A DNA stretch of 64,000 nucleotides from Pseudomonadota bacterium (lineage in GTDB: Bacteria > Myxococcota_A > UBA9042 > GCA-2863065). How positions within the stretch are numbered: the stretch's first letter is position 1; every line of letters starts with the position of its first letter. Shown here piece after piece: positions 7,409 to 50,981 of this stretch. The notes beneath the pieces were generated by a model, which did no database searches, was not told the origin of the DNA, and saw only the letters and a program-made list of their open reading frames with translations. The DNA is taken from positions 429-64,428 of the forward strand of contig CANMLD010000003.1 in NCBI GenBank assembly GCA_947498315.1. Direction: 5' to 3'. The position numbers and the translations under genes were made by a program.

Positions 7409-8971
7409 TCAGACCTGACCGCCGCCCGCGGGGGCGGGTTGGACAGCCGGCTCGGGGGCCGGGGCGGGCTCGGCAGGAGCGGGCTCAGGTGCCTTCGGGG
7501 CGTCGCCTTCGGGCGCCTTCGGGGCGTCGCCTTCGGGCGCCTTCGGGGCGTCGCCTTCCGGAGCGGTGCCGCCTTCCGGCGCGCCCTCTTCCGGCATCTT
7601 CATCTCTGTCGGTTGATCGAAGAGGCCCTGCTTCACGGCGTCGTCGAGTGCTTTTGCGTTCATCGCCGCTGGGTGTGTCGGGGGCAGGTTGCCCTCCTTA
7701 ACGTAGCGGCTGTAGAACTCGATGGCCTTGATGGTGTCTTCCTTCGTGCCCTTCTTCTGATAGAGCTTGCCGATCTCCTCATAGAGGTTGACGCGACGGC
7801 CATCGAGCTTGATGGCCTTCTCGTAGCTGGCGATCGACTCGTCGAACTTGTTCAAGCCGAGCAGGCAGGTGCCGAGGCCCACGATGGCTTCGACGTTGTT
7901 GCTTTCGAGCTTGAGCACGCTGTCGAAACGCTCTTTGGCCCCTTCGTAGTTCAAGAACTCGAGGTAGATCTTGCCGAGGTTCAGGTGCGCCGCGACGTTG
8001 GCCGGGTCGAGCTTGATGGCCGTCGTGAAGTGCTTGACCGCCAGCGGGAGATTGTTCGTGCGGACGTAGACCGTCCCCACGTTCGTGTGGGCTTCGACCG
8101 AGTTCGGGTCGAGCGTCAGCACCTTCTGCTTGAAGATCCACTCCGCGAAGTTGAGTTGCCCCGCCTGGAGGAAGACGAGGCCGCGCGAGTTGAGCGCGGT
8201 GACGTTCTCCGGGTCGGTGATGAGGACCTGCTTGACGTGCTCTTCGGCGCGGTCCGACTGGCCCTTGACGAGCCAGTAGAGTGCGAGGCCGTTGTTGGCG
8301 GGGACGTTCTCGAAGTCCTGGGCGATGACCTCGTCGAACGTGGCTTTCGACTTCCCGAGCAGCTGCTCGGATTCCGCGATCTTACCGGTCTCGATGAGGT
8401 TCTTCGCCTTGGCGAGGTAGATCTTACCAACGAAGGCCTTGGCGTCCGCGCTCTCCGGGTTCGCCTTGATCGCGCGCTGGTAGGCCTCGAGGGCCTTGTC
8501 CGCCTGACCCTGCTTCTCGAAGACGGTGCCGATGTTGAAGTACGGCTCGAGGAAGGAGGGGTCGATCTCAATCGCCTTCTCGAATGACGCCAGCGCCGCC
8601 GAGTAGTCGGGCGGCACCGACAGCGATGACTGGACGCCCTTGCGGAACTCGTCCTGAGCATCACGCTTCACGCCCTCGACGTAGACCGCTTCGGACTCCG
8701 CGTAGCCGGCCGACTTGCTCTCGAGGTCGATACACTTGCTGTTGTCACAGACCCAGCCTGGGCCAAGCTTCGACTGGCAGTCCGACGTCTCCTTGCACTC
8801 GAAGCCGGGGGGCGCCTCGGACTCGGTCGTCTTCAACTTCCCGTCGTCGACCGGCTTGTCGACCGGGGTGGTCGTGCAAGCGACGCCTGCGAACAGAAAG
8901 GCCGCCAAGGCGGTGAGCTGGATGAACAGAGGCTGAACGGCCGCCGTCGCGTTCTGGATGAAGTCACGCAT
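7409..8971 (-). CDS. TPR-repeat lipoprotein (520 aa) with a C-terminal APEGDAPK repeat tail; GltE/NfsE-like position
   Basis: Signal + lipobox (LFAGVAC). Multiple TPR-like repeats (A..Y..AIK..P.....Y.N.G.....G). Low-complexity C-terminus encoded by perfect 24-bp DNA repeats. Its start lies 3 nt from the stop of the upstream TPR gene. Confidence 0.75.
   Translation of the reverse strand: MRDFIQNATAAVQPLFIQLTALAAFLFAGVACTTTPVDKPVDDGKLKTTESEAPPGFECKETSDCQSKLGPGWVCDNSKCIDLESKSAGYAESEAVYVEGVKRDAQDEFRKGVQSSLSVPPDYSAALASFEKAIEIDPSFLEPYFNIGTVFEKQGQADKALEAYQRAIKANPESADAKAFVGKIYLAKAKNLIETGKIAESEQLLGKSKATFDEVIAQDFENVPANNGLALYWLVKGQSDRAEEHVKQVLITDPENVTALNSRGLVFLQAGQLNFAEWIFKQKVLTLDPNSVEAHTNVGTVYVRTNNLPLAVKHFTTAIKLDPANVAAHLNLGKIYLEFLNYEGAKERFDSVLKLESNNVEAIVGLGTCLLGLNKFDESIASYEKAIKLDGRRVNLYEEIGKLYQKKGTKEDTIKAIEFYSRYVKEGNLPPTHPAAMNAKALDDAVKQGLFDQPTEMKMPEEGAPEGGTAPEGDAPKAPEGDAPKAPEGDAPKAPEPAPAEPAPAPEPAVQPAPAGGGQV
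7489..7562. repeat. Perfect tandem repeat, 24-bp unit (gccttcggggcgtcgccttcgggc) x3, encoding (APEGDAPK)n in the TPR lipoprotein C-terminus
   Basis: Read directly from sequence at 7491-7514, 7515-7538 and 7539-7562. Confidence 0.85.
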
Positions 8972-8974
8972 GGC

Positions 8975-11900
8975 TTAGTTCGCTCCTTCCGCTTTCTTGA
9001 CGGGGCGTAGCATGTCCACCGCGGTGTTGCCGCGCTTGAGGAAGCGCACGATGTTGCCCGAGAGCAGAGTGTCTTGCGTGTGCTCCGCGGTCAGCTGCTT
9101 GTTCAGCGGGCTGTCGCCGGCGACGGGGAAGCTGTCCGGGTCCTTCTTGTGGGTGTAGATGCCGGCATCCTTCGCGCACTGGTTATAGACCCCCTTCTCG
9201 TGAGCGACCATGAGCGCGCCCTTGAGGAGGATGAGCGCCTTCTCGTTGATCGGGTCCGCGAAAGTCTGGAGCGCCGCACGGTACTGGGTCTCGCCGTCGG
9301 TTCCGAGGAGCACGTCGGGGATGGGCACCGAGTCGAGCTCCTCCACGAACTTGTAGTAGAGGAGTCCGTTGCGGAAGGCCGCGCAGCCGAGCCAGTAGGC
9401 CGAGCCCATGTTGAACACGCCGTCGAAGGACGCCTCCGCTCGCTGGTGGAGCTCGGCTTTCTTCTTCAGCGCCTCCATGAGCGCGTTGATGTTCATCGTC
9501 GCCGGGATACGCGCGTCGTCGAAATCCTGGAAGGTGTAGTCGGCGGCCCAGTAGGCAGCCTGCGCGGCGTACTCCTGAGCGAAGCCACGGTTCTCGGGGT
9601 TTGGGTCGTTCTTGCCGTTATTGGCGTACTCGTTCACCGCTTTGGTGAAGTAGTCCGTGGCCTTCTTGCGGCTGGTGTAGACCTTCTTGGTCGGCGCACC
9701 GACGGCGTTCTTGGCGTTCTTCGCGACCTGCTCCTTCTCATCGAGAGCGCGGAGGATGTCACCGGCGCGCGACCAGCCCTGGACCTTGAGGCCGGCTTCA
9801 CCCGAGTACTTCGCGGCGAACGCGTCGTAGTGGGTGACCGCCTTTTTGAGCGACTTCTCGTCGGCCATCTTCTCGAGCAGGTTGCCGATCTTGAAGAAGG
9901 CGTTCGGGGCACGTTCGTGCTTCGGGTAGACCTTGAGGAACTTCTCGAGCGCCGCGATGGCCCCGGCGTGATCGTTGGTCGCTTCGCGAATGAGCGAGGC
10001 GTTGATCATGGCGTCCGGCGTGTCCTTGGCGTCCTTGAACTTCTCCATCTGGAGGAAGGCGTCAGCCGACTCTGCGAAGCGCGTCTGCGACTCGTAAAGC
10101 ACGCCGATCTGGAACTGCGCTTCCGGCGCGACCGACTGGCCCTTGAAGTTCTTCACAATAGACTCGTAGGTCGCGACGGCTTCCTTGGTGCGCTTGGCAC
10201 GCTCGTACAGGAATGCGAGGTTGTAGGTGGCCTTGGCGACCATCTCGCGATCCTTCGACTTGCCGAACTCGGCGACGAGCTGCTTCAGACGGCCGATGGC
10301 GTCTTCCACGCGTTTGGCCTTCATGAGCGCGACCGCGTCCTCGTTGATGGCGATGGCGATGTAGGTGCTGGCCTGCTCGTCCGTGATGAACGGGTTCTTA
10401 GTCGCCTTGAGCTTGCGGGCCCACTCTTCGACCTTGTCCCAACGAGCGAGCTTCGAGTAGGCCTCCATGATGGTGACGGCCGCGACCGTCGCCAGCTTGT
10501 GCCTCGAGTCGTACTCGAAGATCTTCTGGAGACGTTGAACGGCCTCGGCGAACTGGCCATGCTTGTAGTAGGTGTCGGCGGCCAGATACATGACCTCCGG
10601 GATCTGCTCGCCGCGCTTCGGATACTTCTTGATGAAGGCCGCGTCCTTGCGGAGCTCGAGGAGCAGGTTGACGTAGCTGTCGGCGGCGTCGACGTAGGCG
10701 CGCTCGAGTGGGTGCAAGTCCGACTTTTGGATGGTCTCGCTCATCGAGGCCTTCCATTCGTCTTCGCTCAGCTTCTTCTTCTCGATCGAGCCGGTGCCCC
10801 CCTTGCCGCCATCAACGCACTCGCGGACGCCCTGCTTACACATCTCTTCGTACGACGCGTAGATGATTCCTAGCGCGGCGTCTTCGACGAACTGACCCTT
10901 CTTGTCGCGCTTGATGACCTCTTGGTACGACTTGATGGCGCCCGCGTAGTCCTTCAGCATCCCGTATTGGATTTCGCCGAGGTTGAAGTTGATGACGTAG
11001 GCCTTCTCGCTGTCCGGGAAACGCGACAGGAACTGCGCATAGTCGCCCGCAGCCTTCTCGTAGAGGTCTTTTGCCAGGCCTGCGTTCTTTTTGTCGTCCG
11101 CTTTCTGGCCCGACTCGTGCCAACCGACGGACATCGACGCCATCTCGTTCTCGGTGAGCGTGTTGGCTTCAGCGACGGCCTCGGTGTTGGCATTGTTGGT
11201 CGACATCCACGACCCATCCGGCTGGAAGTAGGCCCACGCGCGACGCACCTCCTTCTCGGTCTCTGCGGCGTCGTTGACCTTGCGACGCACTTCGAGGAGG
11301 CGCGCGAACCATTGCGCCGCCTTCGCGTTCGACGGGCGGGTCTCGAGGAAGTGATTGAAGAGCTCGGTCGCTTCCTTGTCCTTGTCGAAGCCGATGTAGA
11401 GGTCAGCGAGCTTCTCCATCTTCTCCCAGACGGGATCGCCCTTGGTAAGGACGCGCTCGAAGTATTCGAGCGCTTCGCGCCAGGAGTCATCCATCTCGGC
11501 CCACGTCTTCACGAGGTCATCGAGAGCCTGATCGCGGAAGCTGATTTGGCCGGAGGCGGTCCCGATGTTCTCGACGACCTTCTGGAAGGTATCGATCGTC
11601 TTCCGGAACTCGCGGAGGTTGAAGTACACCCAGCCCAGCTTGTAGAGGGCGTAGTTGAGCATGGGTGAGGTCGGGAAGTTCGTGATGATCTTCTCGTAGT
11701 TCGTCTTCGCGTAATAGAGCGAGTCCGTCTCGAAGAAGTGTTCACCGAGCGCCAGGAAGGCCTTGGGTAGCTGCGGCGACTGCGGGTAGGTCTGAACCAG
11801 CTTCTGCAGGTACTGCACCGCCTCCTTGAGAAGGTTGCGGTCCTGCATCTCCTTGCCCTGCTCGAGGGCACCGCGACCGAGGTAATAGAGGATCTCGTCG

Positions 11901-44153: not shown

Positions 44154-47100
44154 ATGCGCCCCTTCTCCGCAGTCGTCTGCGCCCTCGGAGGCCTCTTCTC
44201 GGTCCTCGCTGCCGGCTGCGGCGACCCCGCGGGCACGACCGGGTCGTCGTCCGATCTGTCCGTCGAGATCGCCACCGAGGACGTCAGCTCAGTCGATATC
44301 GACGGGGCTGATGGCACGCTCGATGATGTTCGTGGCGACGTCGCGTCGACTGACGGCGAGGACGTCGACGCGCTCCCCGACCTCGAGTTCGACAGCGTCG
44401 ACACGGCGGACGTGACGGGGACCGCCGTGGCGTGCGAGCCATGTGGCGCCGGTTGCGCCGTGGGGCATGCGTGCGCCGAACAAGCGATCTTCGCGGGGAC
44501 ATGCCTTCTGGAGTGCCTGCCCCCCAGCGCCTCTGCCGGCTCGGACGAGCCCGAGTGCGAGGCTGGCTTCACCTGCGCCCTCGGGCTCTGTGTCCCGACG
44601 AGTGGTGATTGTGCCTGCGTGCCCGGCGGCGTGGCAGCCGACCGCCCCTGCTCGATCACCACCGAGGTCGGGACCTGCAACGGCGTCGAACGCTGCACGG
44701 GCGAAGCTTGGGTGTGCGACGCCGCGCTTCCGGCTGTGGAGAGCTGCAACGGCAAAGACGATGACTGCGACGGACAGACGGACGATCTACCCCCTCAGGC
44801 GTGCATCGTCTCGAACGTCCACGGTGCCTGCCCGGGAACCCGCGACTGCACCGACGGGGCGTGGGGCCCATGCGAGGGTGCGACGCCGGCCGCCGAGGCC
44901 TGTAACAGCGCCGACGACGACTGCGACGGCGCTACTGACGAAGCGCTGGTGAGGTCGTGCGAGACCGTCTCTGATGCTGGGAGTTGTTCGGGCGATGAGG
45001 TCTGCACTGACGGTACGTGGGGAGGCTGTACCGCAGCCACCCCCATGGCCGAGACCTGCAACGGAAAGGACGACGACTGTAACGGCGCCGCGGACGACGC
45101 GATCGGTCTCGAACCGTGCTCGCGCGAGAACGCGGCTGGGTCCTGCCCCGGGGTACGCGAGTGCGCTGACGGGGCTTTATCGGAGTGTACGGCGGCAGTC
45201 CCCACGCTCGAGACCTGCAATGGCGTCGATGATGACTGTGATGGCACTACGGACGAGGACATCACCGCTGAGGCCTGTGTCCTGACGAACGACTTTGGGA
45301 CCTGCATTGGCGCTCGGACCTGTGACCCGGCGCTCGGTGGTTTCGGCAGTTGCGTTGGCGTAGCCGCCTCTGCTGACCTCTGCAACAGCCTCGACGACGA
45401 CTGCGACGGGCTCACTGACCCCGCGCCCGAGTGCACTACCGATACCGATGGCGACGGCGTCTTCGACTTCGAGGACCGCTGCCTCGAGGTCCTCGATCCC
45501 GACCAACTCGACACCGATGATGACGGCCAGGGCAACGCTTGCGACGCCGACGACGACGACGACGGCATCCTCGACGTCGACGACAACTGCCCGACCGCGG
45601 CGGGACCGCAAGACGACCTCGAAGGGGACGGGCTCGGTGACCCATGCGACGACGACGACGATGGCGACGGCGTCGTGGATGTGAACGACGTTTGCCCTGG
45701 CTTCTACGACCCCAAGCAGCTCGATCCCGATGGTGATGGACTCGGTAACTCATGTGACGAGGACGACGACGGCGATGGCGTTCGAGATGACGACGACAAC
45801 TGCTTGCTGGCGTTCAACCCTGGCCAGGGTGACGCCGACGGTGACACTCAAGGCGACGCGTGCGACCTCGACGCGGACGACGATGGCCTCTCGAACCTCG
45901 ATGACAACTGCGATCTCCAGGTCAACCTAGATCAGAAGGACAACGACGGCGACCTGATCGGGGATGCATGCGACTCGGACGATGACAACGACGAGCTCGA
46001 CGACGTCGATGACCTCTGCCCCTTTGTCGCAAGCTCGGATTCGGGTGATCCGGACGGCGACGGGCTCGGCAATCCATGTGACGAGGATGACGACGGCGAT
46101 GGCCGACTCGACGCCGTCGATAACTGCCGCCTCCTCGCCAACGCGGGTCAGCAGAACTTCGATGGCGACGCGTTCGGTGACGCTTGCGACGACGACGATG
46201 ATGGGGACGGCGTGCTCGACGCCAAAGACAACTGCCTCCTCCTTGCGAACGTGGATCAGGCCGACCTCGACGACGACGAGAGCGGCGATGCGTGCGACGC
46301 TGATCGGGATGGCGACGGCGTCCCCAACGCGATCGACCGCTGCCCTACGGTCTGGGAAGCCGTGCAGGCCGACCTCGACCAAGACGGCCTCGGTGACGCT
46401 TGTGATTCGGATCGAGACGGCGATGGCGTTCTCAATGCCGTCGACCGCTGCCCGAACGCGCCCGACCCCACTCAGCTCAACCTCGACGGTGACGCTCTCG
46501 GTGACGCCTGCGACCCCGATGACGACGGCGATGGCGAAGACGACCTCGACGACAACTGCCTTGCAGTGCCCAACGCCAATCAGGCGAACCTCGATCTGGA
46601 CTCGTTCGGCGACGCTTGCGACCCCGATCAGGACGGCGATGGCGTGCTCGATGTCACCGATAACTGCGACCGAGACGTGAACCCGGGCCAACAGAACGTC
46701 GACGGCGACTCGCTTGGCGACGTGTGTGATCCGGATGACGACGGTGACGGCGTGCTAGACGGCGTCGACAACTGCGTCAACAAGGCTAACCCGACGCAGA
46801 CCAACACCGATGGGGACGCCTTCGGCAACGCCTGTGACACCGACGACGACAATGACGGCAAGCCCGACGGTTTCGATAACTGTGCCTTCATCTTCAATCC
46901 CGACCAAACTGACTCGGACGGCGATGGACGGGGAGACCCGTGCGACTCCGACGAAGACCTCGATGGGACCCTTGACGCCGTAGACAATTGTCCAACGATC
47001 TCAAATGAAGATCAGTTGAACACCGACGGAGATGCACAGGGTGACGCATGCGACTTCGACGATGACGGCGACGGTGTGGTGGACTCGTCCGACAAGTGCC

Positions 47101-50100
47101 CGATCCTCTTCGATCCCGCGCAGATCGACAGCGACGGCGACGGCCGTGGGAATCTCTGTGACGACGATGACGACGGCGACGGGGTGCTCGATAGCAGCGA
47201 CAACTGCTCTGTGACGAACAACCCCGGACAGCAGAACGTCGACAAGGACACGCTCGGAGACGCGTGCGACCCCGATGACGACAACGACACCCGGCTCGAT
47301 GCCGTAGACAACTGCCCACTGGTCGCCAACACGTCTCAGGCCGACCTCGATGGCGACAAACTGGGCGACGCGTGCGACTCGGATGACGATGGCGACGGCT
47401 TCGCTGATACGCTGGATAATTGTCCCGTGACGTCGAACGTGAGTCAGGCCGACCTCGACGTCGACGGTACTGGCGATCTATGTGACGCCGATCGCGATGG
47501 TGACGCCGTGGCCAACGCGACGGACAACTGCCCAAACGTAAAGAACGCGGGTCAAGCGGACCTCGACAAGGATGGGCAGGGGGACGCGTGTGACACGGAC
47601 TCCGATGGCGACGGTACCGACGACAGCATCGACGTGTGCCCCGGACTGAAGGATGATCAGAAGGACGCCGACAAGGACAAAAAAGGAGACGCCTGCGACG
47701 ACGATGACGACGGTGACGGCCTCCTCGACGGCGTGGACAACTGCCCGACCATCGCGAACCCGACTCAGGCCGACGTCGATGGAGACGGCACCGGCGATCC
47801 TTGCGACGGTGATGCCGATGGCGATGGTCTCGCGTTTGCGGCGGACAATTGTCCGTCCGTGGCCAACCCGCTACAGCAGAACCTCGACGGAGACGCCGAA
47901 GGAGATGCCTGCGACCTCGATCGCGACGGCGACAACGTGCCAAACAACATCGACCGCTGTCCGGACGCCAAAGACGATCAGACCGACACCGACGCGGACG
48001 GGGCCGGGGACGCTTGCGACCCTGACGACGACGCCGATGGGGTCCCTGACGCGCAGGATAGATGCCGTACAGTGAAGGATCCGGCTCAGCTCGACACCGA
48101 TAGCGATGGGCTCGGCGACGCGTGCGACAGCGACATGGACGCGGATGGGGTGTCGAACAGTCTCGACAACTGTCCAAAGACGCCCAATGCGGCTCAGGCG
48201 GACATCGATCAAGATGACCTGGGCAACGAATGTGATGATGACCGCGACGGGGACGGACTCAAGAACGCTTCAGACAACTGTCCGGACGTCGACAATGAGA
48301 CTCAAGCGAACCTCGACCTGGACTCACAGGGAGACGTCTGTGACTTCGATGACGATGGTGACGGCTATCCGGACTTGGCCGACAATTGCCCCATACTGAA
48401 GAACGTGGGCCAGGAGGATCTCGACAAAGACCTCATCGGCGACGTCTGCGATGATGACCGCGATGGTGACGGCGTGGCGAACGGCAGCGATGGCTGCCCC
48501 GATCTCGCAGACGACCAGACGAACACCGACGGTGACGCCTTCGGGGACGTTTGCGACATCGACGACGACGGCGACTTTATCATCGACATCGCTGACAACT
48601 GTAGAGCCATCAAGAACGCGAGCCAGCTCGACAGCGATAAGGATGGCCTTGGAGACGCCTGTGACTCCGACCGGGACAACGATGGGCTCCCCGACGCGCA
48701 GGACAACTGTCCAACCCAGGTCAACCCGAATCAGGCCGACCTCGACAAAGACAAGATCGGTGATGCCTGCGACCTCGACGACGATGGCGACGGGGCGCTC
48801 GACAACGGTGACAACTGCCCGATAGTCCCGAACAATCAACTCGACCTCGATGGCGATGGCATCGGTGATGCCTGCGACACCGACGACGACGGCGACACCG
48901 TGCCCGACGCAACGGATAACTGCCCAACATTGCAGAACCCCCAACAAGGCGATTCAGACCAAGACGGGCTAGGCGATCTCTGCGATCAGGACGGTGATGG
49001 CGACGGTCGCTCCGACCTCTCCGACAACTGCCCGACCATCTCCAACGCGAATCAGGCCGACTTTGACGGCGATGGTAAGGGGGACGTGTGCGATCTCGAT
49101 GATGACGGAGACGGCACGGAGGACGCTTCGGACAATTGCGCCAATGTTGCGAATCCGAGCCAGTCAAACGTCGATGGCGATGCTTTCGGCGATTTCTGCG
49201 ACCCCGACGATGACAACGACGGCGTACTCGACCTCCCGGACAACTGCGACGATGTGAAGAACGTCGATCAGGGCGACACCGACGGCGATGGGGCAGGTGA
49301 TACCTGCGACTTTGACGACGACAACGATGGGCAGAACGATCCTGACGACAACTGCCCCTTCAACTTCAACCCGAGTCAGTTCGACGCTGACAAGGATGGT
49401 AAGGGAGACGTTTGTGACACGGATGGCGACGGAGATGGGATCTCGGATGCGCTCGACAATTGTCCCACGCACGCCAACAGTGACCAAAAGAACTCCGACA
49501 ACGACGTGTTCGGTGACGCCTGCGACATCGATGACGACAACGATGGAATCGCCGATATCGCCGATAACTGCCCCTTGCTCGACAACCCGTTCCAAAACAA
49601 CAACGACGGTGATGCGGTCGGTGATCTCTGCGATCCCGACGACGACAATGACGGCATCCTCGACACGGTCGACCTCTGCCCCGTCCTCTCGGGCAACGGT
49701 GGCGGTGACCTCGACAGTGATGGCAAAGGCGACGCGTGTGACTCAGACGATGACAATGACACGGTGCCTGACGGGCCTGACAACTGCCCGACCATCTCCA
49801 ACTTCACTCAGGCCGACCTCGATGGCGATGGCCAAGGGAACGCCTGCGATCTCGACGATGACGCTGACGGTGTCGCCGATACGAACGACTGCGGCCCGCT
49901 CGATCCGAAGATAAAGCCCGGCGCACAGGAGATATGCAACGGGTATGACGACAACTGTGACGGACTCTCGGACATCAACGCGCCCTTCTGTCTGCCACTG
50001 TACAAAGACGGCGACCTCGACAACTGGGGAAGCGACACGAGTGAGTGTGTCTGCTTCGGCAAACCCGGCTGGAGCCTCTATAATGGCGACTGTGACGACA

Positions 50101-50981
50101 ACAACAACGCGGTGAAGCCGTCGGCGACCGAAGTCTGCGGCAACGTTCTCGATGAGAACTGCGACGGGCTTCAGGGGGTTGGCTTCACGGCGCTACCCAT
50201 TTACGTCTCGGCGCCGTATTCGCTCCCGGACGTCGCGGTCCGTATCGTCCTCGATGACCCCGCGACCGTAAAGGCCATCGGCAACCCGGCCTCGATTCGG
50301 ATCTTCCCTGAGCCCGTTGGGGTGCCTTACGCGTCGCCGTTTGGACCCATCCCCTACACGGTCGAGCGCTTCGACCCCGGGCAGCGCCTCTCGCTTTGGG
50401 TGAAGATGAACGTCGTGGGTGGGGCTGAAGTGCCGATCTACCTCTATTTCGGTGGCCCCGCCGGCGGGACGACGCCCCCCGACCATCTCTTTATTGCGTA
50501 CAACAACATGAGTGACAGTGGAGGCTTCAGCGCCGACTCGAACGCGAACCACGGGTTCGGGGTGACGCAGGTCAGCGCGCCCGTGATATCGCCACCTCTC
50601 TCACTGAGGCTGTGGGGCGACCGCCACATGAACACCTGCGGTGCGGCCTATGTGCTGACCAGCGGGATCTTCACGGCGCCATACACCGGGATCGTCAAGC
50701 TCGCGGCGCACGGCATGGCCGAGTGTGGGTCGTGCGTCGCACAGCTTCGGGTCGACGGCGTGCCTGTCGCGAGTACCAACTCGCAGGGCGCCTTGAGCTA
50801 CTTCGAAGGCGTCATCGAGGTCGGGGAGGGCGACCACGTCTGGTCCCTCGGCGTCGTTTCGACCAACCCGTGTGGCGAGGCCTATGGCGCCGTCCTCGAC
50901 GACTTGGTCATCACGATGTCGACCGACTCCGGACCGACGACCTCACCCCGATACGCAGAGGCGACCTCCACATGCCAGTGA
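44154..50981 (+). CDS. Giant lipoprotein (2275 aa): N-terminal MopE-like Cys repeats, ~100+ thrombospondin type-3 calcium-binding repeats, C-terminal MopE-like repeats plus a ~330-aa unknown domain
   Basis: Signal + lipobox VLAAGCG. Eight 'C.G.DDDCDG.TDE' modules. From ~aa 430 to ~1870 nearly uninterrupted 'D.D.DG.GD.CD.D.DNDG..D..DNCP...N..Q.D' TSP3 units. Single continuous ORF with strong GC3 bias. Antisense ORFs listed inside it are artefacts. Confidence 0.8.
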   Translation: MRPFSAVVCALGGLFSVLAAGCGDPAGTTGSSSDLSVEIATEDVSSVDIDGADGTLDDVRGDVASTDGEDVDALPDLEFDSVDTADVTGTAVACEPCGAGCAVGHACAEQAIFAGTCLLECLPPSASAGSDEPECEAGFTCALGLCVPTSGDCACVPGGVAADRPCSITTEVGTCNGVERCTGEAWVCDAALPAVESCNGKDDDCDGQTDDLPPQACIVSNVHGACPGTRDCTDGAWGPCEGATPAAEACNSADDDCDGATDEALVRSCETVSDAGSCSGDEVCTDGTWGGCTAATPMAETCNGKDDDCNGAADDAIGLEPCSRENAAGSCPGVRECADGALSECTAAVPTLETCNGVDDDCDGTTDEDITAEACVLTNDFGTCIGARTCDPALGGFGSCVGVAASADLCNSLDDDCDGLTDPAPECTTDTDGDGVFDFEDRCLEVLDPDQLDTDDDGQGNACDADDDDDGILDVDDNCPTAAGPQDDLEGDGLGDPCDDDDDGDGVVDVNDVCPGFYDPKQLDPDGDGLGNSCDEDDDGDGVRDDDDNCLLAFNPGQGDADGDTQGDACDLDADDDGLSNLDDNCDLQVNLDQKDNDGDLIGDACDSDDDNDELDDVDDLCPFVASSDSGDPDGDGLGNPCDEDDDGDGRLDAVDNCRLLANAGQQNFDGDAFGDACDDDDDGDGVLDAKDNCLLLANVDQADLDDDESGDACDADRDGDGVPNAIDRCPTVWEAVQADLDQDGLGDACDSDRDGDGVLNAVDRCPNAPDPTQLNLDGDALGDACDPDDDGDGEDDLDDNCLAVPNANQANLDLDSFGDACDPDQDGDGVLDVTDNCDRDVNPGQQNVDGDSLGDVCDPDDDGDGVLDGVDNCVNKANPTQTNTDGDAFGNACDTDDDNDGKPDGFDNCAFIFNPDQTDSDGDGRGDPCDSDEDLDGTLDAVDNCPTISNEDQLNTDGDAQGDACDFDDDGDGVVDSSDKCPILFDPAQIDSDGDGRGNLCDDDDDGDGVLDSSDNCSVTNNPGQQNVDKDTLGDACDPDDDNDTRLDAVDNCPLVANTSQADLDGDKLGDACDSDDDGDGFADTLDNCPVTSNVSQADLDVDGTGDLCDADRDGDAVANATDNCPNVKNAGQADLDKDGQGDACDTDSDGDGTDDSIDVCPGLKDDQKDADKDKKGDACDDDDDGDGLLDGVDNCPTIANPTQADVDGDGTGDPCDGDADGDGLAFAADNCPSVANPLQQNLDGDAEGDACDLDRDGDNVPNNIDRCPDAKDDQTDTDADGAGDACDPDDDADGVPDAQDRCRTVKDPAQLDTDSDGLGDACDSDMDADGVSNSLDNCPKTPNAAQADIDQDDLGNECDDDRDGDGLKNASDNCPDVDNETQANLDLDSQGDVCDFDDDGDGYPDLADNCPILKNVGQEDLDKDLIGDVCDDDRDGDGVANGSDGCPDLADDQTNTDGDAFGDVCDIDDDGDFIIDIADNCRAIKNASQLDSDKDGLGDACDSDRDNDGLPDAQDNCPTQVNPNQADLDKDKIGDACDLDDDGDGALDNGDNCPIVPNNQLDLDGDGIGDACDTDDDGDTVPDATDNCPTLQNPQQGDSDQDGLGDLCDQDGDGDGRSDLSDNCPTISNANQADFDGDGKGDVCDLDDDGDGTEDASDNCANVANPSQSNVDGDAFGDFCDPDDDNDGVLDLPDNCDDVKNVDQGDTDGDGAGDTCDFDDDNDGQNDPDDNCPFNFNPSQFDADKDGKGDVCDTDGDGDGISDALDNCPTHANSDQKNSDNDVFGDACDIDDDNDGIADIADNCPLLDNPFQNNNDGDAVGDLCDPDDDNDGILDTVDLCPVLSGNGGGDLDSDGKGDACDSDDDNDTVPDGPDNCPTISNFTQADLDGDGQGNACDLDDDADGVADTNDCGPLDPKIKPGAQEICNGYDDNCDGLSDINAPFCLPLYKDGDLDNWGSDTSECVCFGKPGWSLYNGDCDDNNNAVKPSATEVCGNVLDENCDGLQGVGFTALPIYVSAPYSLPDVAVRIVLDDPATVKAIGNPASIRIFPEPVGVPYASPFGPIPYTVERFDPGQRLSLWVKMNVVGGAEVPIYLYFGGPAGGTTPPDHLFIAYNNMSDSGGFSADSNANHGFGVTQVSAPVISPPLSLRLWGDRHMNTCGAAYVLTSGIFTAPYTGIVKLAAHGMAECGSCVAQLRVDGVPVASTNSQGALSYFEGVIEVGEGDHVWSLGVVSTNPCGEAYGAVLDDLVITMSTDSGPTTSPRYAEATSTCQ

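Follow-up and report, generated by a model that had tools for sequence, protein, structure and literature searches.

A giant myxobacterial lipoprotein with a length-conserved array of 41 thrombospondin type 3 units and a predicted β-sandwich head

Repeats of the thrombospondin type 3 (TSP3) family are known from eukaryotic thrombospondins and COMP, as well as from bacterial envelope proteins. Thrombospondins have about 30 Ca2+ sites, most of them in the type 3 repeats, with cooperative binding, and their signature domains have been proposed to take part in calcium homeostasis (PMC4502920). In bacteria, a protein of the OmpA family (PDB 5wtl; Dai et al. 2017) and TraB of Myxococcus xanthus contain TSP3 repeats that have disulfides within the repeat and are predicted to bind Ca2+; in both, a few repeats join a β-barrel to a periplasmic OmpA-like domain. 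The bacterial repeats are regarded as Ca2+-binding and disulfide-dependent in the literature (Dai 2017, as cited in PMC12045341). The named TSP3 proteins of myxobacteria, TraB (PMC12045341) and MtsC (NCBIfam name; PMC12475490), belong to the cell surface or envelope and are involved in cell-cell interaction. Here, we describe a gene for a TSP3 protein of 2275 amino acid residues (aa), found in a 64,000-nucleotide (nt) stretch (hereafter, the window) of contig CANMLD010000003.1, assembly GCA_947498315.1 (positions 429 to 64,428, forward strand), which is assigned to a Pseudomonadota bacterium with the GTDB lineage Myxococcota_A; UBA9042; GCA-2863065.

The window protein follows the same logic as thrombospondin and COMP, with Cys-rich modules leading into a Ca2+ wire and a β-sandwich (the L-lectin domain in thrombospondin) at the end. 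However, Pfam finds only TSP_3 and MopE motifs in it, and the coiled-coil, EGF and TSP_C domains of metazoan thrombospondins are absent; in addition, it is predicted to be lipid-anchored, unlike thrombospondins. In contrast to the OmpA-family protein and TraB, with which it shares the type of repeat, it has neither a barrel nor an OmpA domain, and its 41 units lead to a distal head that is predicted to be lectin-like. MtsC (MXAN_1334; NF047638), a cell-cell cohesion protein of the MYXO-CTERM type, is another myxobacterial envelope protein with TSP3 repeats; the window protein is five times longer, starts with a lipobox and has no MYXO-CTERM tag. What is noteworthy at this locus is the exactly conserved array of 41 units together with a head assigned as DUF2341 plus a domain resembling carbohydrate-binding modules (CBMs). 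Otherwise, the protein adds to a class of myxobacterial envelope proteins that is abundant and uncharacterised.

The TSP3 array and its constant length

The gene is a complete open reading frame (ORF), with a third-position GC bias as in real genes and surrounding sequence of about 66% GC, and it encodes a real, conserved myxobacterial lipoprotein. An initial annotation, made from the DNA letters alone, had placed a single ORF at exactly these coordinates (Table 1). The domain order proposed there, from lipobox through Cys modules, TSP3 repeats and further Cys modules to a C-terminal globular part, agrees with that obtained from Pfam (TSP_3, PF11617) and the sequence, and both C-terminal strings quoted there are present in the translation.

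According to the Pfam analysis, the TSP_3 model (PF02412) matches the protein in 41 stretches with 899.1 bits against a cutoff of 25 (E 1e-278). The consensus of the units is CDxDDDGDGvlDaxDNCPxvxNpxQaDlDGDglGDA. Each unit contains one short and one long Asp-rich loop, with loop starts alternately 13 and 23 aa apart, which gives 83 loop positions in the array; the full consensus [DN]x[DN]x[DN]xxx[DN]xx[DN] is present in 81 of the 83. Two Cys residues per unit are invariant in all 36 tabulated units of exactly 36 aa, and the array has 84 Cys in total. The estimate of more than 100 repeats given initially was too high, since counting with hidden Markov models yields 41 Pfam units and a partial 42nd, or 83 if loops are counted.

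A search of PDB sequences with a fragment of seven units showed the highest similarity with COMP (3fby) and TSP-2 (1yo8/2rhp), at E of about 1e-44, followed by TSP-1 (1ux6) at 2e-21, and the identity with the type 3 units of thrombospondin/COMP was 40–46%. The units are homologous to those of the eukaryotic proteins and share with them the alternating 13/23-residue Asp loops and the Cys pairs. A model of six units was built with AlphaFold2 (AF2), using as input seven non-overlapping windows of the array aligned as paralogues. It has a predicted local distance difference test score (pLDDT) of 91 and contains almost no regular secondary structure, as would be expected for a Ca2+ "wire". The fold matches of this model are 2rhp, 3fby and 1yo8 (E about 1e-21) and 1ux6 (1e-12), with a weak match to the TSP3 repeats of bacterial OmpA (5wtl, E 9e-4). 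The global root-mean-square deviation from the thrombospondin wire is about 22 Å, so the likeness is local and the overall path differs.

Thrombospondin has about 13 loop motifs. The array of 83 motifs in the window protein cannot wrap round a single lectin domain. Scaling by length or loop number from the approximately 30 sites of the thrombospondin signature domain suggests about 80–170 predicted Ca2+ sites, and the earlier figure of "hundreds" is an extrapolation.

The initial annotation had regarded the DNA as internally repetitive and prone to recombination or assembly error. This expectation was not borne out. Exact repeats within the gene reach 24 nt at most, so that assembly k-mers longer than this are unique within it. 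Pairwise identity of the units averages 58% for nucleotides (range 45–73%) and 52% for amino acids (maximum 72%), and the program Tandem Repeats Finder reports merely stretches of about two copies at about 75% identity. A 28.8 kb ENA contig (ERZ27280213 k141_101129), whose name prefix k141_ suggests a short-read k-mer assembly, encodes a product identical across all 2275 residues; 5 of 10,828 nucleotide positions differ from the window, including four in the gene, all of them synonymous.

In addition, a collinear orthologue of 2270 aa with syntenic flanking genes is encoded by "Myxococcales bacterium MAG_44" (contig JADMJS010000240.1; L001 3986..10798). The protein identity is 81% and the DNA identity 78%, and the orthologue has the same 41 units with zero indels over 1486 aligned array residues. 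The ratio of nonsynonymous to synonymous substitution rates (dN/dS) between the two genes has an overall value of 0.095 and drops to 0.069 within the array, with dS of about 1.4, and conservation within the array reaches 96% at D/C/G/N/Q positions compared with 66% at other positions. Similarity between units is flat at about 0.52 for every lag from 1 to 12, and no super-repeat or lag-dependent similarity was found among the units; this independence of distance in the array argues against recent duplication or gene conversion. The array is neither an assembly artefact nor recombination-prone. Considering the diverged units, the independent assembly, the indel-free orthologue and the lack of concerted evolution, the number of units appears to be a stably inherited and selected property, as judged from one orthologue and one near-identical strain.

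The protein consists of 24% Asp (545 residues), 11.7% Gly and 6.2% Cys, with a net charge of −522. Since it has 140 Cys (138, an even number, in the mature form) and a signal peptide, an oxidising extracytoplasmic location is indicated. At window positions 46001–50000, the same place as the array, an AT skew of +0.21 and a dip of GC content to 0.60–0.63 were noted, which are probably an effect of the dense GAC/GAT codons. Among Asp codons, the share of GAC falls from 0.77 in the N-terminal region through 0.71–0.73 in the early array to 0.64 at its 3' end, and it rises to 0.89 in aa 1913–2275, which comprise the two MopE motifs and the head.

Table 1. Features of the lipoprotein gene and other genes mentioned in the text (window coordinates)
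Feature	Residues	Position	Strand	Basis or remarks
Giant TSP3/MopE lipoprotein, complete ORF		44154..50981	+	2275 codons plus stop; ORF listing and translation
Signal peptide with lipobox, MRPFSAVVCALGGLFSVLAAG followed by C; Cys22 is the predicted lipidated residue	1–22	44154..44219	+	pattern inspection of sequence
Acidic, Cys-free low-complexity linker	23–93	44220..44432	+	sequence
Irregular Cys-rich stretch, 11 Cys	94–165	44433..44648	+	Cys positions; dN/dS 0.13
Five regular modules of about 52 aa with 6 Cys, each ending C-N-G/S-x-D-D-D-C-D/N-G (MopE-type half motif)	166–426	44649..45431	+	PF11617 and Cys spacing
TSP3 array, 1487 aa: 41 tandem units of 36 aa (6 of them 35 aa) and a partial 42nd	427–1913	45432..49892	+	Pfam TSP_3, register analysis
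Two full-length MopE motifs, 8 Cys	1914–2010	49893..50183	+	PF11617
Head sub-domain 1, divergent DUF2341-like β domain (predicted)	2011–2130	50184..50543	+	transitive homology and BFVD fold matches
Head sub-domain 2, jelly-roll β-sandwich (predicted)	2131–2275	50544..50978	+	alignment A1, AF2 model, Foldseek against PDB
Large putative envelope protein, 1433 aa		1774–6075	+	four IPT/TIG
Protein of about 740 aa		17523–19745	+	Cep192_D4 / HYDIN-type Ig-like (ASH) domains
Protein of about 740 aa		20062–22272	+	Cep192_D4 / HYDIN-type Ig-like (ASH) domains
Large putative envelope protein, 1245 aa		29030–32767	−	two DUF4397
FAD monooxygenase, 503 aa		37468–38979	+	squalene epoxidase domain PF08491, E 7e-20
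Mur-ligase protein, 572 aa		55895–57613	−	Mur-ligase domains only
Cyanophycin synthetase, 950 aa		57642–60494	−	Cyanophycin_syn N-domain, ATP-grasp, Mur ligase domains

Terminal regions and head-sharing relatives

The N-terminus, MRPFSAVVCALGGLFSVLAAGC, starts with M-R and a hydrophobic core and continues into the lipobox-like sequence LAAGC, in which cleavage would take place between LAAG and C; by pattern inspection, this corresponds to the lipobox of bacterial lipoproteins. In the MAG_44 orthologue, whose N-terminus is MRLYFAVSCALGGLYVALAVGC, the lipobox is kept as LAVG before the Cys. The linker region following the lipobox is the least conserved part of the protein (59% identity with the orthologue over aa 1–165; dN/dS of the linker 0.58), and the only indels between the two proteins are found within it, in aa 69–80.

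Instead of the eight MopE-like modules initially counted in the N-terminal part, five regular 52-aa modules and an irregular stretch with 11 Cys are present, and Pfam matched no stretch within the latter. PF11617 was detected in aa 1–430 with 58.8 bits (cutoff 27, E 6e-16; five stretches, profile positions 14–30 of 30) and in aa 1913–2010, preceding the head, with 69.2 bits (cutoff 27, E 3e-19; two stretches, profile positions 1–26 of 30). DNA repeat families D5/D6 in the N-terminal modules have a spacing of 156–165 nt. For PF11617, binding of metal (copper) as in Methylococcus MopE is putative, as the name of the family says. In a scan of the full protein, PF11617 is silent at E ≤ 0.01 although the flanks alone score 59 and 69 bits; it is probably masked there by the huge TSP3 array through bias or score correction.

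The C-terminal part after the MopE motifs (the head) consists of 265 aa (aa 2011–2275) and ends in ATSTCQ, one residue past a Cys, with no hydrophobic tail. A C-terminal domain of about 330 aa and unknown function had been proposed in this place. Its globular nature stands; it is, however, shorter, and relatives were found for both of its sub-domains.

These relatives were not detectable by direct comparison with domain models. Pfam gave nothing for the head, with no match to the PF10102 (DUF2341) model for aa 2011–2275 or 2011–2121 even at E ≤ 10, and the NCBIfam search with the last 265 aa gave only a chance match with MreC (E 0.11). Neither the head sequence itself nor a profile of it had a significant match among PDB sequences; the best one, arylsulfate sulfotransferase with E 0.35, was treated as chance. 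A word-indexed homologue search with the head was empty, and a scan of metagenome contigs with it found no relative.

An exhaustive HMMER scan of 1.84 billion representatives with the head gave 34 matches, most of which cover only query residues from about 3 to 122 and belong to proteins with multiple DUF2341 domains. In phmmer, three proteins (P0003, P0005 and P0012) matched query residues 3–122 with E-values ranging from 1e-20 to 2e-9, and the matched segments of these proteins score with PF10102 at E 1e-8 to 1e-25. About eight proteins among the representatives match both sub-domains, with 24–29% identity, and the full-head homologues P0004, P0006, P0007, P0009 and P0024 match PF10102. A profile search with alignment A1 (the head and seven distant homologues) added DUF2341 proteins only. 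By this transitive homology, sub-domain 1 is assigned as a divergent DUF2341 domain. A role as a pilus-tip adhesin domain has been inferred for DUF2341 by Makarova et al. (PMC4858521), and giant surface proteins of Patescibacteria repeatedly contain it as well (PMC11809585).

The residues C2162, C2191-x-x-C2194, R, D, G-x-H and D do not vary in sub-domain 2 in alignment A1. Conservation of C2240 goes along with that of the penultimate C2274: the sole homologue without one of them, P0024, also lacks the other. The two residues probably form a disulfide pair that closes the C-terminus. The alignment further suggests either a second disulfide or a metal site in the head.

The AF2 model of the head is all-β, with a pLDDT of 77 and a predicted template modelling (TM) score of 0.67. 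According to the Foldseek analysis against PDB, the best matches of the model are CBM61, CBM6, CBM22, CBM35, CBM4, the ligand-binding domain of the ephrin receptor and MAM; for the model with this pLDDT, they have E 1e-5 to 1e-4 and target-normalised TM 0.5–0.62, and those with CBMs are weak (10–16% identity). In BFVD, a library of viral structures, the best matches are DUF2341 proteins over the whole two-domain module (TMq 0.51–0.54), followed by tail-fibre or receptor-binding proteins of phages. The best fold matches of the head are thus CBMs and DUF2341 proteins, and the thrombospondin C-terminal domain is absent among the 50 PDB matches listed. Based on the model and the homologues, the head can be described as a divergent DUF2341 domain followed by a predicted CBM-like jelly-roll β-sandwich, with putative glycan binding.

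Two of the complete head-sharing proteins are short-stalked lipoproteins. In P0004 (405 aa, starting with ..GALAAC), the stalk comprises about 1.5 TSP3 units plus a single MopE motif; that of P0007 (586 aa, starting with ..LLLLTAC) consists of a Pro/Thr linker with four MopE motifs and no TSP3. The genes adjoining both encode further MopE proteins, one of which, beside P0007, has a different head, LamG. The presence of the same head on short-stalked lipoproteins and of a LamG head on a MopE neighbour suggests a modular scheme, in which a lipid anchor is followed by a MopE/TSP3 spacer of variable length and an exchangeable binding head. In the unrelated metagenome bins containing the short-stalked relatives, genes with MopE motifs are located at L003 3737–5626 (−) and 8016–10427 (+) and at L002 1343–2995 (+), and one of these neighbours has lectin domains of the LamG or sialidase-like type. 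Such an arrangement suggests clusters of MopE-stalk paralogues that differ in their heads.

Of the 8000 candidates scored in a search with the full-length protein, 2804 reached E ≤ 1e-20. Among the 120 best of these, the majority are 2000–3900 aa long and contain PF02412 and/or PF11617, and the bins of origin are mostly Myxococcota-like; where names are given, they read "thrombospondin type 3 repeat-containing protein" or "MopE-related protein". P0046 has 37 TSP_3 stretches and P0071 has 114 Asp-loop motifs, and the longest uninterrupted run of motifs among the best 120 matches is that of the window protein. Giant TSP3/MopE proteins are therefore abundant in metagenomes and uncharacterised, and the window protein is at the high end of the class rather than unique. 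It resembles the other members, from Myxococcota and other bins, in building blocks and scale, but most of them interleave TSP3 with MopE, whereas its 41 units form one essentially uninterrupted array. Its DUF2341 and jelly-roll head is rare among the 1.84 billion representatives scanned.

Proposed function and alternative explanations

With moderate confidence, we propose that the protein is a lipid-anchored stalk that Ca2+ and disulfides would stiffen and whose head would bind a ligand or glycan, and that it serves as an adhesin or matrix-binding fibre. The initial annotation had suggested a surface or matrix calcium scaffold or a huge adhesin, which is still the most plausible interpretation. 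The proposal builds on features shown by the analysis, namely, the domain anatomy, the homology of the repeats to Ca2+ wires, strong purifying selection, the fixed length, a head modelled as a β-sandwich and the occurrence of this head on other lipoproteins. It also fits the surface or envelope location and the cell-cell interaction of the named myxobacterial TSP3 proteins, MtsC and TraB. Lipidation, localisation in the outer membrane or at the surface, Ca2+ binding, stiffness and the ligand are its predicted parts.

After processing by signal peptidase II, acylated Cys22 would be held in a membrane, probably the outer membrane because residue +2 of the predicted mature protein is Gly rather than Lys. 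In Myxococcus xanthus lipoproteins, Lys at +2 is a signal for retention in the inner membrane. The poorly conserved acidic linker would act as a tether, and the disulfide-knotted MopE-like modules and the 41 TSP3 units would form a long filament. Each unit would chelate Ca2+ through its two Asp-rich loops and be cross-linked by disulfides of its two invariant Cys, similar to the thrombospondin/COMP wire and the TSP3 repeats of OmpA, so that folding and stiffness would depend on extracellular Ca2+. At the far end, the DUF2341 and CBM-like jelly-roll head would bind most likely a glycan or exopolysaccharide, or else a partner on another cell, and the whole protein would act as an adhesin or matrix-binding fibre in the manner of Ca2+-rigidified repeat adhesins.

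The adhesins of type I secretion systems (T1SS) that are rigidified by Ca2+ (RTX/BIg; LapA, Legionella pneumophila RtxA) work by the same proposed principle, in which a long Ca2+-dependent extender holds ligand-binding domains off the cell. A TSP3 element is also reported for L. pneumophila RtxA (PMC11264772). However, the window protein has no RTX nonapeptide repeats (no HemolysinCabind or related match in Pfam), no T1SS signal and no retention module, and its anchoring would be achieved by N-terminal lipidation, unlike that of the T1SS adhesins; the likeness is an analogy of mechanism only.

Several points weigh against the adhesin interpretation. Lipidation and exposure at the outer membrane or surface are predicted from a sequence pattern. 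The TSP3 repeats of OmpA-like proteins and of TraB serve as linkers in the periplasm, so that the presence of such repeats does not by itself imply surface exposure. Just one of the five AF2 models of the TSP3 segment is confident, the similarity of the head with CBMs is weak (E 1e-5, 10–16% identity, target-normalised TM of about 0.6), no sugar-binding residues were identified in the head, and the neighbouring genes offer no functional link.

An unlikely alternative is that the protein is a periplasmic structural tether, that is, an outer-membrane lipoprotein facing inward whose array acts like the linkers of OmpA or TraB and whose head binds peptidoglycan or another envelope polymer. Lipoproteins sorted by the Lol system face the periplasm by default, and the only bacterial TSP3 repeats known to be described structurally or functionally (5wtl; TraB, PMC12045341) are those placed between a β-barrel and a periplasmic OmpA-like domain. 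Yet the 1487-aa array and about 330 aa of Cys modules far exceed the short linkers of OmpA and TraB, Pfam found no OmpA, LysM or other peptidoglycan-binding domain, and the resemblance of the head is to CBMs, to receptor-binding domains and to DUF2341 proteins of surface or pilus-tip type.

It is also improbable that the protein mainly serves as a calcium buffer or reservoir of the envelope, or as a mineral-nucleating scaffold, with a head that merely localises it. The 83 Asp-rich loops, the Asp content and the strongly negative charge fit such a role, as do the cooperative Ca2+ binding of thrombospondin signature domains and the homeostasis function proposed for them (PMC4502920); but a buffer would need neither an exact number of units nor invariant Cys pairs nor a conserved distal head. 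Moreover, the same head is present on relatives with almost no TSP3, and in known TSP3 proteins Ca2+ is structural.

In an unlikely extension of the adhesin interpretation, the array could be a Ca2+-gated molecular ruler or spring that is stiff and extended at ambient Ca2+ and collapses on its withdrawal. Such a ruler may fix the distance between the outer membrane and the ligand of the head, possibly at tens of nanometres, and may be a bacterial functional counterpart of the thrombospondin cassette of Cys modules, Ca wire and lectin. The lack of indels across the dS separating the two orthologues, the lack of concerted evolution and the very different fixed stalk lengths of the head-sharing relatives are compatible with this idea. 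If the protein is indeed a stalk with a head, it and its short-stalked relatives would represent a natural series on Ca2+/disulfide wire spacers of defined length, and for the widespread DUF2341 there would be a hypothesis to test, with the domain as the binding unit at the far end of surface proteins.

Two further explanations are hardly tenable. The array length could be the product of collapsed or expanded repeats, in keeping with the 108-nt periodicity visible in the DNA, but the divergence of the units, the identical protein from the separate k141_ contig and the same 41 units in the MAG orthologue speak against an assembly artefact. The other is orthology with MtsC, to which the NCBIfam equivalog model NF047638 (throspo3_MtsC) would point with 1727.8 bits, far above its cutoff of 350; this score comes from 17 repeat stretches, the best of which covers only profile positions 89–266 of 428, and the match does not extend beyond the repeats of the profile, while the absence of an NCBIfam match in the C-terminal 265 aa, and hence of MYXO-CTERM, the C-terminus lacking a hydrophobic tail, the N-terminal lipobox and the length of 2275 aa compared with 428 model positions exclude it from this family in our analysis. 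The name "Omp28-related selenoprotein" (NF045500, 519 bits against a cutoff of 200) was also rejected as repeat-driven. Equivalog cutoffs of both models are exceeded by repeats alone, in the range of several-fold, and automated annotation may mis-name such proteins.

Gene neighbourhood

A scan for promoters and terminators around the gene gave nothing useful. Genes for an α/β-hydrolase and a glutamine amidotransferase are located upstream of it, and the downstream side has genes for a DUF4388/TPR protein and an FHA-σ54 activator. Further genes in the vicinity code for UvrA, a GT4 glycosyltransferase, a squalene-epoxidase-like enzyme and cyanophycin synthetases. The neighbours are housekeeping or regulatory in type.

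Other genes of the window are included in Table 1. Neither of the two other large putative envelope proteins, with IPT/TIG and DUF4397 domains, contains TSP3 or MopE at E ≤ 1e-5. Two neighbouring genes encode proteins with Cep192_D4 / HYDIN-type ASH domains, which are rarely annotated in bacteria. The Mur-ligase protein adjoins the cyanophycin synthetase, and the two may represent a CphA/CphA2-like pair. The squalene epoxidase domain of the FAD monooxygenase is unusual in bacteria and is reminiscent of sterol-making myxobacteria.

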